From Candidatus Hodarchaeota archaeon (lineage in GTDB: Archaea > Asgardarchaeota > Heimdallarchaeia > Hodarchaeales > Hodarchaeaceae), in contig JAEOTC010000006.1 of the NCBI GenBank assembly GCA_016840035.1, positions 1 to 14,020 on the forward strand: 14,020 bases of DNA. The letters are read 5' to 3'. Positions within the stretch are counted from its first letter, which is position 1. The number at the start of each line of letters is the position of its first letter. Position numbers and translations under genes: made by a program. The notes under the pieces are model-generated. The model had not been told where the DNA came from. It saw nothing but the letters and a program-made list of their open reading frames with translations, and did not search any database. Below, in pieces: positions 5,752 through 13,533 of this stretch.

Positions 5752-5867
5752 ATTTGGTAATGAATGGATAAGAATCTCTACGGTCAGTTTTGGTGTGCAC
5801 AGATGAATAGGTTTTAAAAGCACCGTGTGTGAGTCCTGTTAAACCAATCTCAATCCAGGACTCCTCG

Positions 5868-8012
5868 ATGCAGATTAATAAATCGCTTCTAATATTTTTC
5901 CTCCTAAGTCTTCTTATCAGCATTGTTGGTGTTAATGTTCAGGTACGCGCCTCAGAAAAACCAGAGTACTTCTTTTATGTGCACATGATTGCTCCAACAT
6001 CCAGTACCGTGCGGATGCAATATGCTCAACTCATGGAAGGAGAACTAGCAAAAATTGGGATTGGTACAAAACTAGAATTGGTAAGTTGGGGAGCTTTAGG
6101 TCCTCGTTGTTATAAGCAAGAAGTAGGAATGTATAGCGAGGGAGGATATGATGTATGTATTTTTGGTATGCACCTGGGAACTCCAGAACGACATCCTGGA
6201 GCATCTTTGCAGGGCATTTTTGGAGCAAATGCGATCCCCCCAGAAGGGTTTAATACAATGTATTGGTCCCCTGAATTAGGGAAGAACTATAACAATTACC
6301 GTGCTCAAGAATCAGATGACCTAATTCAGAAAATTGCCACCAATCTAAACCTATCAGAAACTAGAAAGGATCTGATCGAGTGGCAAAAGCTCTGGTATGA
6401 CGTCATGCCGAATGTGTTAATCTATAACCAGTATGAGGTACACGCTATTTCCACAGGTCTTTATGGATACGATCCGGTTGCTTATCCTTTAAATTCAATT
6501 GAGGACGTCTGGTTAACAAGTGATTTTACAGGAACAGCTGGTCACGTAGTTTTGGCTGCAAGTACTGGTGGAGAAACCTTTAATCCATTACTTACCACTG
6601 ATGTATACGACCAGTATGGCAATAATCCAGCATTTGATGGACTTGTGGGAAACACACCTTCTAAAGAGGCTGTTTTACCAACAGGAACCGTTCGAGCTAC
6701 ATGGATGACGGATAACTACAATACAACTGATTATCTAGCTCTGTACCCAAGGGTAGCTGATAGTATGGGATCTTATTCCTCAGATGGTTTATCATATGCA
6801 GTCGATCTAAGAGATGACGTCTATTTCCATGATGGACATCAAGTGGACGCATGGGACATTGCAATGTCTTTTCAGGCCCACATTATTTCTGATATGGGAG
6901 CATCGTCTTACTCAAATCTGATAGTACCTTTTGGTGAAGATGATAAGACCAATAAGCATGGAAATTACTCCTTTACAGTAATAGACGAGGATAGCGATGG
7001 CTTCGATGAACATATCAACTTCACACTAAATACAACCTATGCTCCGTTTGAAACAGATTATTTAGGAGTGTGGATTTTCCCCGAACACATTCTTGGTGAC
7101 CCTATCAACCACGGTTTTGATCCAACAACTGGTGACTTTGATCCTGATAATCAATGGCTTGTTGCACCTGGTGACTGGCAATATCACTCAACCACTACTG
7201 GTCGAACTACTGACCCAGGTGGGTATGAAGGACCCATTAGCTGTGGTTCAATGATCTTTAAGGAGTTTGATTCACTTAATAACATTGTAAAACTCGAGAA
7301 ATTTTACCAAACCAAGTGGGACAACGCTACTGGCGATTGGATAGATGATGCTACTCTTAGTCACTGGAATATTGATAATTTAGAAGACATGCCTGACTCG
7401 GCCAAGGTGATTCTTTCAAGTATGGATGCTGGTCTCGTTGATATGAAAACAGGTGGAATCAACATCCTGGATCCCCAATTCACTATGGCAAACATTCTAG
7501 ATAAACTTCAAAATGATAGCACAATTCAACCTATTCTTTCACCCGAGACTGGTTGGCCAGCCATCTACTTTAACCCAAAGTTTGTACAGGACGACATTTA
7601 CCATTTTCAGAGGAAAGGTGTCCGCCACGCGATTTCTCATATGGTACCTCGTGAGGATATTATAACATACCTCATGAATGGTTTGGGTCTCCCTGCTTAC
7701 ACCCCTATACCCGTTACTTCGTGGGCAGCTATTTCTGAATCCGAATTGCTTGAATACAAGAAAACTTTACAGGCAACTGATAATTCTACCCCTGAATCGA
7801 ATGCTGTAGCCGCATTCGATGAATATTCAATCGACAAGGCATTTGATTGGCTTGATACCGAAGGATATAACACTACTGAGTGGCGGCAATACACCGAAGT
7901 CCCTACAACTAGTTCTACTAGAGGTTTTCTTCCTGGCTTCGAGTTTTTTGGAGTTGTTATCTTGATTGTCATTCTCACTATTCATTCGATTCTGAGGCGT
8001 AAAAAATTATGA
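5868..8012 (+). CDS. ABC-type family 5 (OppA/DppA/NikA-like) extracellular solute-binding protein, circularly permuted, with a PGF-type C-terminal anchor
   Basis: Family 5 motifs: 'SSDGLSYAVDLRDDVYFHDGHQVDAWDIAMSF', 'GPISCGSM', 'KGVRHAISHMVPREDII', 'EYSIDKAFDWLDTEGY', 'NYNNYR..ESDDLI'. I moved the start to the ATG at 5868 because that signal peptide (MQINKSLLIFF...VRA|SEKPEY) aligns with the paralog. The tail is LPGF + TM + RRKKL. Confidence 0.9.
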   Translation: MQINKSLLIFFLLSLLISIVGVNVQVRASEKPEYFFYVHMIAPTSSTVRMQYAQLMEGELAKIGIGTKLELVSWGALGPRCYKQEVGMYSEGGYDVCIFGMHLGTPERHPGASLQGIFGANAIPPEGFNTMYWSPELGKNYNNYRAQESDDLIQKIATNLNLSETRKDLIEWQKLWYDVMPNVLIYNQYEVHAISTGLYGYDPVAYPLNSIEDVWLTSDFTGTAGHVVLAASTGGETFNPLLTTDVYDQYGNNPAFDGLVGNTPSKEAVLPTGTVRATWMTDNYNTTDYLALYPRVADSMGSYSSDGLSYAVDLRDDVYFHDGHQVDAWDIAMSFQAHIISDMGASSYSNLIVPFGEDDKTNKHGNYSFTVIDEDSDGFDEHINFTLNTTYAPFETDYLGVWIFPEHILGDPINHGFDPTTGDFDPDNQWLVAPGDWQYHSTTTGRTTDPGGYEGPISCGSMIFKEFDSLNNIVKLEKFYQTKWDNATGDWIDDATLSHWNIDNLEDMPDSAKVILSSMDAGLVDMKTGGINILDPQFTMANILDKLQNDSTIQPILSPETGWPAIYFNPKFVQDDIYHFQRKGVRHAISHMVPREDIITYLMNGLGLPAYTPIPVTSWAAISESELLEYKKTLQATDNSTPESNAVAAFDEYSIDKAFDWLDTEGYNTTEWRQYTEVPTTSSTRGFLPGFEFFGVVILIVILTIHSILRRKKL

Positions 8013-8036
8013 ATCATCTTTATAGCGGGTTTTACA

Positions 8037-10196
8037 ATGCTGGATAAGAAACCTCTTCTGATATTGTTCTCCATAGGCCTATTAATCTCTGTTGTTGGGA
8101 GTAATATTCAGGTACAAGCCTCGGAAAAACCAGAGTACTTCTTTTTTGTGCATATGATTGCTCCTACATCCAATCCTGTGCGGATGCAATATGCTCAACT
8201 CATGGAAGGAGAGCTACCAAAAATAGGAATTGGTGCAGAGTTAGATTTGATTAGCTGGTACGCCTTAGGACCTCGTTGTACAGACCAAGAAGTGGGAATG
8301 TACAATGAAGGGGGATATGATATTTGTATTTTTGGAATGATGCCAATTAGCTACTTCCCATGTAACCATGATAGCCTGTACTGCGTTTATGGCAAGAATG
8401 CCATCCCTCCTACAGGATTTAATGTGATGTATTGGTCGTCTGAGACAGGTAAGAATTATAATAATTATCGTGCTCAAGAATCAGAGGATTTAATCAAACG
8501 AATGAACACTAATTTAAACTTAACAGAAGTTAAATCAGATTATCGGGAATGGCAAAAGCTCTGGTATGATGTAATGCCCAATATTCTGATTTATAGTCAG
8601 TATGAAGTACACGCCGTCTCTACAGGTCTTTATGGTTATGATCCAGTTAAATATCCTTTGAACTCTATTGAAGACATGTGGCAAACCTCTGATTTCACAG
8701 GAACTGCGAATCAAGTGGTGTTGGCATCAAGTACTGGCAGTGATACTTTTAACCCACTAATTGCTACTAATGTGCATGACCACTATAGCAATAACCCTGC
8801 GTTTGATGGATTATATGGAAATACTCCCTCTAAAGAAGCTGTTCTTCCATCGGAAACAGATCGTGGTACATGGATGAAAACAAAATACAATACCACTGAT
8901 TACATGGCTCTTTACCCTAGGATTGCAGCTAAAATGGGTACCTATTCCTCAGATGGTCTGAGTTATGCAATAGATGTGAAAGAAGGTGTCTATTGGCACG
9001 ATGGTGAGAAAGTGGATGCATGGGATATCTCGTTTTCCTTCCAAGCACCTCTTATCCCACCTGTAGGAGCCTCTCAGTACTCGTACTTGATAGGATCATT
9101 TGGTATGGATAACAAAACTGCCAAACATGGGAATTATTCCTTTACAGTTACAGATGAGAACAGTGATGGTTTTTATGAGCACATCAACTTCACTCTTGGC
9201 AGAATCTCTCCTTCATTTGAGACAAACTATGTAGGAATGTATCTATTCCCTGAGCACATTCTTGGGGATCCTGTTGATCATGGTTTTAACTCTAATGGTG
9301 ATTTTGTCCCCAATGAAAAGTGGAACGTTAAACCTAAAGATTGGCGACATCATTCCACTACTACTGGTCGAAAAAATGATCCTGGTGGTTATACTGGGCC
9401 TATTGGTTGTGGTTCCATGGTTTTCAAGGAGTACGATTCAACTACGGGTAAAATTACTCTTCAGAAATTCAAAGATATCAAATGGGACAACATTAGCAGC
9501 CAATGGGTATCTGCTCCAGGTTTTAGCCACTGGAACATAGATAAATTAGATAATATGTCCGATATAGCGAAAGTTATTGTCCTAAATCAAGATAATACTC
9601 TTTCTAGTATGAGGACTGGAGAAATTAACATCTTGGATCCGTACTACAATTTAAATAACATTTATGATGAGCTCCGAGTAGAAGATACAATTCAAACCGT
9701 TTTTTTGACTGAAGAAGGGTGGCAATCCATTTTTTTGAATCCTAAATTTGAACAAGACGGTATACATCATTTAGCTAAGAAAGGGGTACGACACGCAATC
9801 TCACACTTAGTACCTCGTGAGGATATTATTACCTACCTCATGAACGGTTTAGCGTACCCAGTTTATTCCCCCGTCCCGCATACCTATTGGGAAGCTATTT
9901 CTGAGGATGAGCTGATAGCTTACAAACGAAGCTTAGAAGCCTCTGACGGTACTACTCCTGAATCAACTGCTACGACAGCTTACGATGAGTATTCAGTGCG
10001 TCTGGCTTCCGATTGGCTTGATACTGAGGGGTATAATACGACTGAGTGGCGAGAATATAGTTATGAGCCTCCAGAGGATAATCCCTTCCCTAAAGTTGTA
10101 GATACAACACCCCTCATTCTTGGTTTACTGTTTATCTCAGTTGTATTAATAGTAATATACATCTCAGGGTACAAATTTCTTATGCGTAAAAAGTAA
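8037..10196 (+). CDS. Second, tandem paralogous family 5 solute-binding protein, circularly permuted, with a C-terminal TM anchor
   Basis: Same motifs and order as 5868-8012, about two-thirds identical by eye, with a 2169-bp offset over the N-terminal half. Signal peptide present. C-terminal TM followed by MRKK, with no PGF motif. Confidence 0.9.
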   Translation: MLDKKPLLILFSIGLLISVVGSNIQVQASEKPEYFFFVHMIAPTSNPVRMQYAQLMEGELPKIGIGAELDLISWYALGPRCTDQEVGMYNEGGYDICIFGMMPISYFPCNHDSLYCVYGKNAIPPTGFNVMYWSSETGKNYNNYRAQESEDLIKRMNTNLNLTEVKSDYREWQKLWYDVMPNILIYSQYEVHAVSTGLYGYDPVKYPLNSIEDMWQTSDFTGTANQVVLASSTGSDTFNPLIATNVHDHYSNNPAFDGLYGNTPSKEAVLPSETDRGTWMKTKYNTTDYMALYPRIAAKMGTYSSDGLSYAIDVKEGVYWHDGEKVDAWDISFSFQAPLIPPVGASQYSYLIGSFGMDNKTAKHGNYSFTVTDENSDGFYEHINFTLGRISPSFETNYVGMYLFPEHILGDPVDHGFNSNGDFVPNEKWNVKPKDWRHHSTTTGRKNDPGGYTGPIGCGSMVFKEYDSTTGKITLQKFKDIKWDNISSQWVSAPGFSHWNIDKLDNMSDIAKVIVLNQDNTLSSMRTGEINILDPYYNLNNIYDELRVEDTIQTVFLTEEGWQSIFLNPKFEQDGIHHLAKKGVRHAISHLVPREDIITYLMNGLAYPVYSPVPHTYWEAISEDELIAYKRSLEASDGTTPESTATTAYDEYSVRLASDWLDTEGYNTTEWREYSYEPPEDNPFPKVVDTTPLILGLLFISVVLIVIYISGYKFLMRKK

Positions 10197-10202
10197 AAGG
10201 AT

Positions 10203-10685
10203 TTAAAAAGTAAGTTCGTCTAATAACTTCTCATAGTCCTCTTGTGATAGTCCCTCTGATTTTTCATAAACTTCCTCCTGCTTTAAGGTTATTGTCTCTG
10301 CTGTTTTTAATAGTACTAGTTGTTCTGAAACTTTAACACTCAGTACTTTTACGCTTGCCTTTAGTTTTCTGAGAGATGCGTTTTTATGGGTGATAGCGAC
10401 TAGTACATACTCTTTCGTTACTCCGAAAAGACAGAGATTGAAGTTTGGAAAATCCATTTGGCTGAATCCTAGTTCTCCTAATTTTAATTCACTCATACCG
10501 AGATATATCGCAGTTGAAATAGAAGCAATGCCCTCAAAATCTGAAAAAGTCTCAGCAGATCCCGATTTCGTTACCTTCGAAAGAACCAGTCCTGTGGCAT
10601 CTGAAAGAATTATTTGTATTATGCCAGGAGTTGATTTCATGAATTTCGTCAAGTGAGCATTGAGGGCATTGTTGATATCCATCAT
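10203..10685 (-). CDS. Roadblock/LC7 (MglB/LAMTOR-like) domain protein with a C-terminal extension
   Basis: 'L..FMKSTPGIIQIILSDATGLVLS...EGIASISTAI...GEL....MDF...NLCLFGV..EYVLVAIT.KNA.L..L' is the roadblock fold pattern. The ATG at 10685 is preferred over the TTG at 10706 because a TATA-like element lies at 10712-10721. Confidence 0.85.
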   Translation of the reverse strand: MMDINNALNAHLTKFMKSTPGIIQIILSDATGLVLSKVTKSGSAETFSDFEGIASISTAIYLGMSELKLGELGFSQMDFPNFNLCLFGVTKEYVLVAITHKNASLRKLKASVKVLSVKVSEQLVLLKTAETITLKQEEVYEKSEGLSQEDYEKLLDELTF

Positions 10686-10711
10686 TCTCAGAATCCTTTG
10701 AATCAATTTAT

Positions 10712-11240: not shown

Positions 11241-12116
11241 ATGACGTTTTCATCTGAAATAGACCTCGCAACTCAGAAGTATATTTCTAATCCTGAGATC
11301 GACATAACCCTGCAATTAGCCTTGAAGCTTAATCGTCCCATCTTAATAGAGGGTCCAGCTGGTACAGGCAAAACTAGTGTTGCTATTTCCATGGCAGGAG
11401 CGTTAAATTGGAAATTATTTCGTATCCAATGTTATGAGGGGATTACATTTGAAAGCGTTATTGGAGAGTTCGATTATAAACGGCAGCTCCTCCATATTGA
11501 GTTAGAGCGACAAAAAAGTACGTCTTCGTCTCTAATTAATTTTGAGGATATTTTTTCAAGGAAATTTTTTATCGAAAGACCCCTTTTCCATTCTTTTATT
11601 GAAAATGAACCTAATGTACTGTTGATAGACGAGATTGATAAATCAGATGAGGAATTTGAAGCGTTTCTATTGGAAGCATTAGGTGAACGACAAATCACTA
11701 TTCCTGAACTGGGTACATTTAAAGCAAAGAATGACCAACAAATTGTGATTCTAACGAGCAATTCGAGCCGTGATTTAAGTGAGCCACTCCGCCGAAGATG
11801 TCTGTTCTTATACATTGACTTTCCCTCTCCAGAGCGTGAACGAAAAATTCTCGCTGCTCATACTGGTAGAAATTTTGATGATCCTCTCATTCAAAGCATT
11901 GCAGGAATTATACAGCAAATTCGTCAATATGACTTGCGTAAAGTTCCATCAATTGCTGAAACGATCGATTGGGCGAAAGCCTTGGTTCTGTTAGGAAAGG
12001 AACACATCGACGAACCGACTCTGAGAGAAACTATAACAGTTCTTCTGAAATATCAAGAAGATATTAGTCGATTAGAAAAGCAGCTAAGTGAAATCATTCG
12101 GATAGGCACAAAATAA
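11241..12116 (+). CDS. MoxR-family AAA+ ATPase, CoxD-like
   Basis: Walker A GPAGTGKT, 'RIQCYEGI', 'ERPL', Walker B LLIDEIDKSDEEFEAFLLE, 'ITIPELG', sensor-1 LTSN, 'LRRRC' and 'K.PSIAETIDWA'. These are hallmarks of the CoxD subfamily. Confidence 0.93.
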   Translation: MTFSSEIDLATQKYISNPEIDITLQLALKLNRPILIEGPAGTGKTSVAISMAGALNWKLFRIQCYEGITFESVIGEFDYKRQLLHIELERQKSTSSSLINFEDIFSRKFFIERPLFHSFIENEPNVLLIDEIDKSDEEFEAFLLEALGERQITIPELGTFKAKNDQQIVILTSNSSRDLSEPLRRRCLFLYIDFPSPERERKILAAHTGRNFDDPLIQSIAGIIQQIRQYDLRKVPSIAETIDWAKALVLLGKEHIDEPTLRETITVLLKYQEDISRLEKQLSEIIRIGTK

Positions 12117-12129
12117 AGGGATTCTTACA

Positions 12130-13533
12130 ATGGGAGTAATTTTAAACTTTGTAACAATGTTAAGATATTTTGGCTTACCTATTTCTCCTGATGAGACTAT
12201 TACCGCTCAAAAAGCTTACCAGATTTTGGGAACACAACAGAAAGAAATCTTTCATTTCGGTTTGAGAGCTGCAATTGTTAAAAAAAAAGAAGATCTGCAC
12301 ATTTTCGATACTGTGTTTGATTCTTTCTTCACTAGGCAATCAAGCACTAATTCTACCCCTTCCGATCCTGAATCATACGAACGAGCAAAAAATCGCTTTA
12401 TTAGTCGGTTAGAAGGAACTCCCTATCAAGAAATTGGTCAAGAAATATTAGAGGACCAAGTCAATCACGCAATTCAAACTGCAGTCGAAATGGTGGGTGA
12501 TGGAGAAGGATCTTCCGGACAATCAATTGGTAACGAACTTTCTAATCTACAAAGAACGCTTCAGAGAGCCTTTAACTTAGCATTTGGAGTAAAAGTTCCA
12601 ATACGGGATTTGACTCCAAGTCAACGCCAAGTATTGCCAGACCAGACCATTCAACTTGCTGCTAATCTCCAATTTTTTGAACAAGGGATTAAGAAGAGAT
12701 TCCAGGAACAGCTGCAGGATACTTCTCTTGATCAAGAAGAAGAACCTGTTAATCTTTCTTCAATTGATTCTTTTCTATACCAGGATTTGAGTTTTGTATC
12801 AATGTCTGTTGCGAACGTGAAAGAACAACTTATAGAGATTGGGCGTATTCTTGCCTCACGAGAGAAACGTAGACGAAAACGTGCGAAACGTGGGAAGCTC
12901 GATTTTAGACGGACATTCAGAAAGAATTTAGCAAATAATGGAGTACCTCTGGATCTTGTTCAAAAAAAGAAGCAGATCCAGGATCCAGATATCGTGATCT
13001 TGAATGATGTTTCAGGTTCTACTAGGTGGGTTGCTGATTGGTTTTTTGCAATAACCTATGCTGCTCAAGGTGTATTCAAGAAGATACGGATTTTTGAATT
13101 TGATAATACTATGGTAGAAGTTACTGCTGCTCTAAGAAAGAAAACTATCAATCGTGCTCTGGAAGAGCGAAGCAAATGCTGGGAGAAAACTCTTCGTCCA
13201 CGAAGAATTCATTCGGATTACCAGAGTTCGTTGGAAGATTTTTTTCATTTAATTAAATTTCGGCCTTTGAACCGACGAACTACCGTTCTAATTCTTGGAG
13301 ATTGTCGAGACTGTGAAGGAACGTGGCGTACTGCAGGCCCTATCAGTGCTGAACTTCTATATAAAGTAGTTTTGCCTACAAAAAGAGTAATTGTTCTGAA
13401 TCCCGAGGATGAATCTTTGTGGAATACAGGTGATTCCGTAGTTCAATATTTTCAAACCGTGGGAGCAGAAATATTTCATGTTGCAACTTTAAATGATTTA
13501 ATCGATTTTGTTTTCGATTTAAAACGGAATTAA
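12130..13533 (+). CDS. CoxE-like VWA-domain protein (MoxR partner)
   Basis: N-terminal 'F...LR..GLPISP.E', 'GKLDFRRT.R.N....G.P', MIDAS DVSGS, 'SDY..SL', 'TTVLILGDCR' and 'LNPE...WNTGDS'. It starts 13 bp after the ATPase gene. Confidence 0.9.
   Translation: MGVILNFVTMLRYFGLPISPDETITAQKAYQILGTQQKEIFHFGLRAAIVKKKEDLHIFDTVFDSFFTRQSSTNSTPSDPESYERAKNRFISRLEGTPYQEIGQEILEDQVNHAIQTAVEMVGDGEGSSGQSIGNELSNLQRTLQRAFNLAFGVKVPIRDLTPSQRQVLPDQTIQLAANLQFFEQGIKKRFQEQLQDTSLDQEEEPVNLSSIDSFLYQDLSFVSMSVANVKEQLIEIGRILASREKRRRKRAKRGKLDFRRTFRKNLANNGVPLDLVQKKKQIQDPDIVILNDVSGSTRWVADWFFAITYAAQGVFKKIRIFEFDNTMVEVTAALRKKTINRALEERSKCWEKTLRPRRIHSDYQSSLEDFFHLIKFRPLNRRTTVLILGDCRDCEGTWRTAGPISAELLYKVVLPTKRVIVLNPEDESLWNTGDSVVQYFQTVGAEIFHVATLNDLIDFVFDLKRN

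Follow-up and report, generated by a model that had tools for sequence, protein, structure and literature searches.

The family-5 solute-binding proteins (SBPs; cluster C, PF00496) include E. coli DppA (1dpe/1dpp), OppA (1b52, 3tcf), B. subtilis AppA (1xoc), and NikZ/NikA. To our knowledge, all described members of this family are colinear. Here we describe two adjacent genes in a 14,020-bp stretch of DNA from a Hodarchaeales archaeon ("the window"), which is the whole of contig C75 from a genome that is 87% complete (G000; 4.3 Mb). Their products, P0001 and P0002, share the three-domain fold of cluster C and belong to the same family, but they are not colinear with it: they place the canonical residues ~330–500 first and residues 1–345 second, the old termini are fused, and the new termini lie in a loop of domain III. 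A preliminary description of this DNA had proposed that both proteins are naturally circularly permuted. We confirmed the permuted order, and the interpretation is supported, as comparisons to Pfam, to PDB sequences, to known folds, to a tandem copy, and by BLASTP all agree. By homology and by fold, the window proteins are members of family 5, and they are a topological variant of it.

A natural circular permutation has been described in another ligand-binding protein, Tp0684 (TpMglB-2) from T. pallidum, which binds glucose and for which the class "Type Ic / Cluster Bc" was proposed (PMC4990184). In TpMglB-2, the first three strands of the N-lobe have moved to the C-terminus, and the permutation adds a fourth hinge crossing (PMC4990184). 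The moved part is 13% identical to the canonical segment, and the authors considered its acquisition from another gene; they also suggested that permutation and tethering may be connected (PMC4990184). Like TpMglB-2, the window proteins are natural permutations of a membrane-tethered ABC-type (ATP-binding cassette) ligand-binding protein. Unlike TpMglB-2, which is a two-domain protein of cluster B (type I), the window proteins belong to cluster C, and both blocks of the permuted form are clearly homologous to the canonical ones (E = 1e-23 and 3e-39 for the relatives P0128 and P0184, discussed below). Also, no extra hinge crossing is expected in the window proteins, and their family has several cut points alongside tandem fusions. 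We considered whether the window proteins might belong to Cluster Bc and rejected this: every fold match listed for the full model belongs to cluster C (family 5), as do 48 of the best 50 for the N-terminal fragment, and the cut is in domain III. The likeness to TpMglB-2 seems to be an analogy of principle only.

The nearest unpermuted relatives are three canonical SBPs from Asgard archaea of the family Kariarchaeaceae (P0184, P0197, and P0215). These have the same design, with a signal peptide and a C-terminal transmembrane (TM) helix, and they share the motifs "PNTNPAR..W" and "ELPKIGIG" with the window-type proteins, but their segments are in the canonical order. We did not find any published natural permutation of a family-5 or OppA-type protein in the full-text literature, whose coverage of subscription journals is small. 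The new elements here appear to be the wide occurrence of the permuted form in Asgard archaea and its presence in Bathyarchaeia, along with several cut points, fused forms, a phylogeny of the family, and the contexts in Opp operons.

Swapped block order in P0001 and P0002

The two genes are on the forward strand, 24 nucleotides (nt) apart, and the proteins are 63% identical (BLASTP). Each protein begins with a hydrophobic signal peptide, which is followed by ~650 globular residues, a linker rich in Thr, Ser, and Pro, and a C-terminal hydrophobic helix with a basic tail (ending in RRKKL in P0001 and in MRKK in P0002). Gene 1 likely starts at the ATG at 5868, although the start from the ORF (open reading frame) finder is the in-frame GTG at 5829. 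The features of both genes are:

5868..8012 (+): gene 1, encoding P0001, a permuted family-5 SBP (ORF, Pfam, motif positions, AlphaFold2 model)
5868..5951 (+): gene 1, signal peptide with a hydrophobic core, ...VRA/SE (read from the sequence; AlphaFold2 helix at 18–33 with low confidence around it)
5958..6524 (+): gene 1, C-block, amino acids (aa) 44–232 (Pfam model 292–353; phmmer, canonical ~393–600; fold, DppA 329–492 and AppA 348–489)
6492..6548 (+): gene 1, junction of the old C- and N-termini, aa ~222–240 (junction alignment A3; confidence above 90 throughout)
6525..7898 (+): gene 1, N-block, aa 233–690, the canonical N-terminal two thirds, ending with the "...DWLDTEGY" helix (Pfam model 2–286; VIA-align)
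7899..8009 (+): gene 1, Thr/Ser linker, PGF-like motif (LPGFEFF), TM helix, and basic tail (RRKKL) (sequence; AlphaFold2)
8037..10196 (+): gene 2, encoding P0002, a paralogue with the identical permuted order (ORF, Pfam, motif positions)
8127..8693 (+): gene 2, C-block, aa 31–219 (Pfam model 291–351; phmmer, canonical 393–606)
8694..10064 (+): gene 2, N-block, aa 220–676 (Pfam model 2–258/264)
10065..10193 (+): gene 2, linker, TM helix, and basic tail, with no PGF motif (sequence)

The C-block of gene 1 corresponds to the canonical C-terminal third, that is, most of domain III and the return strand to domain I. The motifs by which the preliminary description had recognized this block at the start of each protein are all exactly where it placed them: RMQYAQLMEGEL at aa 62/49, GGYD at 105/92, NYNNYRAQES at 153/140, and WQKLWYDVMPN at 185/172 (P0001/P0002). 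The normally N-terminal block (VVLA) does come second in the chain, at nt 6546 and 8715, and the chain ends at DWLDTEGY (aa 673/659), followed by the linker and the hydrophobic tail.

PF00496 (SBP_bac_5) scores 103 bits in P0001 and 97.4 bits in P0002, as compared to a cut-off of 32.4 bits. Although the main match is at the C-terminal end of the protein, it stops near position 286 of the 368 in the model. Split scans gave the pair of matches that had been predicted, in swapped order and with complementary model coordinates: in P0001, residues 53–121 match model positions 292–353 and residues 305–688 match positions 2–286, and P0002 is alike.

Comparisons to canonical proteins gave the same result. 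Among PDB sequences, phmmer aligned H. pylori DppA (6ofq) in three parts, with query residues 279–409 at 52–177, 591–635 at 303–347, and 57–93 at 379–415. When 1.84 billion representatives were searched exhaustively by phmmer, canonical proteins matched query residues 30–220 at ~400–600 and ~292–360 at ~60–150, and all eight of the canonical proteins that we compared individually had one and the same swapped mapping. When the canonical sequence P0214 was copied in tandem in silico, a single alignment crossed the junction between the copies (query 31–408 at 393–559 and then 1–203, E = 1e-9). We also built profiles of the two blocks from distant permuted proteins. In bacterial canonical proteins (from Bacillales, Nitrospirota, and Thermomicrobiaceae), the N-block (E = 1e-72 to 1e-88) precedes the C-block (E = 1e-22 to 1e-28), while in the archaeal proteins the C-block is first and the N-block is second. 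Taken together, the swapped matches are far beyond chance. At the level of sequence, the cleanest single result for permutation is the BLASTP comparison of two Asgard relatives, the permuted P0128 and the canonical P0184: residues 197–542 align to 33–376 (E = 3e-39) and residues 21–186 align to 393–554 (E = 1e-23). The order was swapped in every comparison that we made, and the canonical colinear order was not found in the window proteins.

The AlphaFold2 model of P0001, which was built from an alignment of 39 sequences, is one confident globule (predicted local distance difference test, or pLDDT, of 89.7; predicted template modelling score, or pTM, of 0.85). Low confidence is limited to the region of the signal peptide and the linker (pLDDT under 50 at 692–706, just before the tail helix at 704–726), and pLDDT is above 90 over the fused old termini. 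VIA-align matched model residues ~226–690 to residues 1 to ~350 of family-5 structures (Z = 20–21.8 over 320–340 residues), and the strong matches for this block include AppA, DppA, NikZ, and OppA. For instance, AppA (1xoc) matched with Z = 21.8, and residues 238–685 of the model matched residues 1–345 of E. coli DppA (1dpe) with Z = 20 and a root-mean-square deviation of 2.9 Å. The N-terminal 191 residues, when folded alone, matched only the C-terminal thirds of family-5 proteins (DppA 329–480/492 and AppA 348–489, with Z = 8–9.5). When this fragment was searched against 48,161 representative chains independently of Foldseek, ranks 1–48 were all family-5 SBPs, and the first other fold was at rank 49 (Z = 6.0). 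Because the fold ranges of the two blocks are complementary, the N-terminal part is not an unrelated fold, which is one of the outcomes that the preliminary description had named as contrary to a permutation. As for the other, no PDB chain searched aligned colinearly to the full length of the model, which suggests that a permuted structure from cluster C has yet to be solved. The TM-scores of the model in sequential Foldseek alignments, normalised to the target, were 0.45–0.47.

The preliminary description had placed the cut in the loop after the "...AGY" helix and had proposed that the old termini were joined, and both proposals hold. P0128 ends at the equivalent of P0184 residue 376, at its "...LAGY" helix, and begins at the equivalent of residue 393, with the strand that comes next after that helix in P0184. 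Thus, the cut removes only a 16-residue surface loop. The junction alignment shows a link of about 5–10 residues between the old termini. The remaining proposal, that the new C-terminus carries a membrane anchor that would tether the protein from a different point, is also supported, with one nuance. The TM (PGF-type) anchor is not special to the permuted proteins: canonical paralogues in the same genome likewise end in a PGF-like motif, a TM helix, and a basic tail. What would differ is the exit point of the tether, which would be the domain III loop and not the canonical C-terminus in domain I.

Given the published domain boundaries of DppA and OppA, the chain would start in the domain III surface loop after the "...LL.eaGY" helix, pass through the rest of domain III, and return to domain I. 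Beyond the fused old termini, it would enter what is canonically the first strand, continue through domains II and I, re-enter domain III, and end at the "...LL.eaGY" helix, followed by the Thr/Ser linker and the PGF-like TM anchor. The two crossings between the lobes would be kept, so the Venus-flytrap hinge and the ligand cleft should persist.

None of the PGF-CTERM models in NCBIfam had a listed match in P0001 or P0002. The archaeosortase A model (TIGR04125) has a sole match in the genome (G000:C112:39948-40265, - strand; L029), with 24.5 bits against a cut-off of 75 and E = 3e-5, and the exosortase model (PF09721) has none, but the control search with PF09721 also missed Haloferax. Many other surface proteins in this genome end in PGF-like signals despite this single sub-threshold match.

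Two smaller features of the window proteins were also apparent. The close subfamily has an insertion of ~28 residues ("NTPSKEAVLP...") after the first strand of the N-block (window 6651-6737, P0001 aa ~275–303), which is absent from the distant permutants (alignment A3). Also, the segment after the conserved "GGYD.CIFGM" diverges sharply between the paralogues ("HLGTPERHPG" vs. "MPISYFPCNHDS"; window 6150-6200 and 8320-8370, P0001 aa ~113–125 and P0002 aa ~100–115). We take this segment to be a ligand-contacting position in canonical DppA and OppA, and its divergence suggests that P0001 and P0002 may have different specificities.

Distribution, other cut points, and phylogeny

A survey of the permuted form, which the preliminary description had called for, found it across the Asgard phylum and also in Bathyarchaeia. 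All of the full-length homologues at 36–69% identity are from Asgard archaea (Hodarchaeales, Heimdall-, Hermod-, and "Promethearchaeota"). The window-type order was found in about 150 retrieved proteins of at least 450 aa, a biased sample in that every member was retrieved as a match to a permuted query; ~55 of these are distant representatives of clusters at 50% identity. Each of the ~150 proteins has a signal peptide and an anchor. Their identity to the window pair ranges from 69% down to about 24–30%, and the close family keeps 43 invariant columns.

We also used a junction profile of 193 positions, which comprises the end of the C-block, the fused termini, and the start of the N-block. Only permuted or tandem-fused genes can match this profile from end to end. 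Within the same genus, 20 of 21 genomes have such a match. So do nearly all genomes from four more families in the class, and such matches also occur in another three families within the phylum. Among the matches listed (to E = 6e-29), all but one fragment at a contig end cover positions ~2–192. Five genomes from three additional families each have end-to-end matches as well, in frames of 588–656 aa.

Outside of the Asgard archaea, two proteins named as Bathyarchaeota or Bathyarchaeia (P0226 and P0229) have the window-type order. Another window-type permutant, P0260 (554 aa), starts with a signal peptide rich in Ala, lacks the C-terminal anchor, and ends right at the "...LLEEGGY" cut; it could be from a different lineage, possibly bacterial or high-GC. 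About a dozen homologues of ~950–1010 aa (P0021, P0038, P0074, and others) have a C-terminal extension of ~300 aa between the SBP fold and the anchor. These extensions did not match any Pfam family.

Judging from the Pfam coordinates of the relatives, there are at least four cut points:

Pfam 292–353, then 2–286 (cut ~290): window type
Pfam 213–362, then 2–190 (cut ~205): P0143 and relatives, including a Thorarchaeota protein
Pfam 143–364, then 2–141 (cut ~142): a protein from contig C215 of the same genome as the window (L021:1708-3639, - strand)
Pfam 98–358, then 2–88 (cut ~92): P0111

The window-type proteins, the ~205-cut type, and the C215 protein are complete, as each has both a signal peptide and an anchor at the C-terminus. 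The C215 paralogue has a PGF-type tail and is downstream of oppC-, oppD-, and oppF-like genes. Two sequences of the P0111 type have the anchor, and their N-termini look shortened by gene calling.

Some relatives contain more than one SBP unit. P0221 (1245 aa) matches model positions 207–351, then 2–358, and then 2–211, which makes two permuted units, and P0222 (1533 aa) is similar; both chains start with a signal peptide and finish with a PGF-type anchor. P0212 and P0100 have two to four canonical units head to tail. Fused frames in other genomes range from 834 to 2591 aa, and the giant single frames (2591 aa in G317:C59, 1801 aa in G074:C27, and 1536 aa in G075:C170) have two to four or more SBP units.

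To compare the arrangements in a phylogenetic tree, we rotated the sequences in silico to a common order. The tree is from a short search and has support values from the SH-aLRT (Shimodaira-Hasegawa-like approximate likelihood-ratio test) only. A clade with 97% support mixes the arrangements: the proteins cut at ~205 form a clade in it, the pair cut at ~92 is nested within window-type proteins, and the canonical Asgard clade and the window subfamily are also included. The canonical P0184, P0197, and P0215 group with the window-type P0120, P0128, and P0228 (100% SH-aLRT) inside a mostly permuted clade. We discarded two long-branch joinings in the first tree (C215 with L004, both from the same genome as the window, and C238 of that genome with P0260). 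Before counting state changes and testing topologies, we dropped seven rows (C215, L004, C238, L009, and L001 from this genome, P0260, and the fragment P0162). On the tree without long branches, the four arrangement states require four changes. Confining all of the canonical-order proteins to one side of a branch was rejected by the AU (approximately unbiased) test (difference in log-likelihood of 142.7, p = 2e-9). Together with the tree, this rejects a single switch between the canonical and the permuted order: either some proteins regained the canonical order, or the window-type cut has more than one origin.

The tree, the AU test, the fusions, the cut points, and the tandem pair in the window would all fit permutation by duplication. 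In this scenario, tandem SBP genes would fuse in frame, and loss of the outer parts would leave a permuted single unit. We tentatively propose that the archaeal family-5 SBPs may be a living series of this process, with fusion (into frames of up to about 2750 aa that have several units), trimming at different places, and repeated switches of order (either the canonical order was regained or the window-type cut had several independent origins). A possible driver would be C-terminal anchoring, since each cut point would set the tether point and the orientation of the receptor over the transporter.

We know of few well-documented natural permutations of large multi-domain proteins, and several cut points with surviving fusions in one family seem rarer still. 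The family could allow the route of duplication, fusion, and trimming to be tested on real sequences. In practical terms, the single match to PF00496 spans only part of a permuted protein, so annotation pipelines may misjudge the domain limits, and structure-based transfer of ligand residues to permuted SBPs needs re-indexing. The putative shift of the membrane tether also raises the question of how tethered receptors dock on ABC importers. Finally, permuted binding-protein biosensors have ready templates in the four cut sites found in nature and in the short linker that naturally bridges the old termini.

Genomic context and alternative explanations

Elsewhere in the same genome, contig C238 has oppB-, oppC-, oppD-, and oppF-like genes, an uncharacterised gene, and then a permuted SBP with the same cut as the window pair. 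Similarly, in a contig from a Bathyarchaeia metagenome-assembled genome (MAG; L033) and in a related metagenome contig (L032), a permuted SBP is beside oppB/C-like permeases and oppD/F-like ATPases. Because more distant permutants with the same cut are found in Opp-type clusters, the window proteins are probably transport receptors, which would serve Opp/Dpp-type ABC importers encoded elsewhere. As for the substrate, the NCBIfam equivalog models (Opp4A, NikA, GsiB, and CntA) all score far below their cut-offs for the window proteins, so no substrate class can be assigned. In L032:1-17767 and L033:1-11904, the permuted SBP and the Opp-type transporter are among genes for an MTTB-family methyltransferase, a corrinoid (B12-binding) protein, MtrH, and URO-D-like proteins; given these neighbours, the substrate in the Bathyarchaeia clade may be a methylated or quaternary amine.

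Overall, it is very probable that both genes in the window encode complete, secreted, C-terminally membrane-anchored, permuted SBPs of the OppA/DppA fold, which most likely arose by fusion of tandem genes and are likely receptors for Opp/Dpp-type ABC importers encoded elsewhere. Several observations weigh against parts of this explanation. The fold evidence consists of two separate sequential alignments, and the model of the N-terminal fragment is of moderate quality only (pLDDT 73, Z about 9.5). The trees have the limits given above (a short search on rotated sequences, with SH-aLRT support only), and the tandem fusions could be secondary. There is no gene for an ABC permease or ATPase in the 14-kb window, nor within 10 kb on either side of the three copies in a relative (L022), and members of the close subfamily are often orphans. 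Finally, close homologues in three independent Asgard genomes (P0048, P0012, and P0026) adjoin an FtsX-type ABC system, not an Opp-type one, with an FtsX-domain permease of ~960–980 aa and two ABC ATPases (L018:3337-12118, L030:1-12160, and L031:5578-12136). All of these genes share one strand in L018, where a single 647-aa gene separates the ATPases from the SBP and the SBP gene follows after a gap of 14 bp. These neighbours, and the lack of Opp-type genes near the window pair and near the three copies, would also be expected if permuted SBP folds did not feed an Opp-type importer and were instead surface receptors, sensors, or partners of, for example, the FtsX-domain (type VII, MacB-like) ABC system. 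We think that this is unlikely. It is common for orphan OppA-type genes to share a transporter whose genes lie elsewhere, permutants with the same cut are inside Opp operons, L031 also has oppBCDF-like genes about 4–9 kb from the SBP gene, and we found no precedent for a partnership of a family-5 SBP with FtsX (we made no search aimed at one).

The permutation itself could be questioned in two ways, both of which start from the tandem arrangement of SBP genes. As tandem SBP genes and tandem fusions exist, partial fusions could arise, and the N-terminal ~190 residues might be the decaying remnant of an upstream SBP fused to a C-terminally truncated SBP, with a product that is non-functional or is two unrelated pieces. 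But the blocks are exactly complementary (Pfam 292–353 plus 2–286), the model packs both of them into one confident globule, and the ~150 proteins retain this layout with an intact signal peptide and anchor, as well as the 43 invariant columns of the close family. We consider this remnant scenario very improbable. Even less credible is an artefact of assembly or gene calling from tandem SBP arrays in metagenome bins. The window is indeed a short MAG contig with tandem SBP genes, but the identical order recurs in numerous independent assemblies, some of which are single-contig genomes (G066, G004, G015, and G016; CP070695), and a signal peptide and an anchor bound each frame.

A family-5 SBP that is linked to a type VII ABC system would be unusual. 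We also looked for a conserved partner among the upstream ORFs and rejected this idea, as no relationship exists between the 330-aa ORF that precedes the SBP genes in the window and the 376-aa ORF that precedes the SBP on C238. Neither of these ORFs, nor the 647-aa ORF in L018, has a match in Pfam.

The other genes in the window encode URO-D-like, metallophosphoesterase, roadblock-like, MoxR-type AAA, and VWA proteins, along with several ORFs without an assignment. Directly downstream of the SBP pair is a roadblock/LC7-like protein (10203-10706, - strand), with a weak match to MAPKK1_Int. About 1 kb further on, there is a pair of genes for a MoxR-type AAA ATPase (11241-12116, + strand) and a VWA (CoxE-like) protein (12130-13533, + strand). 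The URO-D-like gene (216-1364, - strand) is about 4.5 kb from the SBPs.

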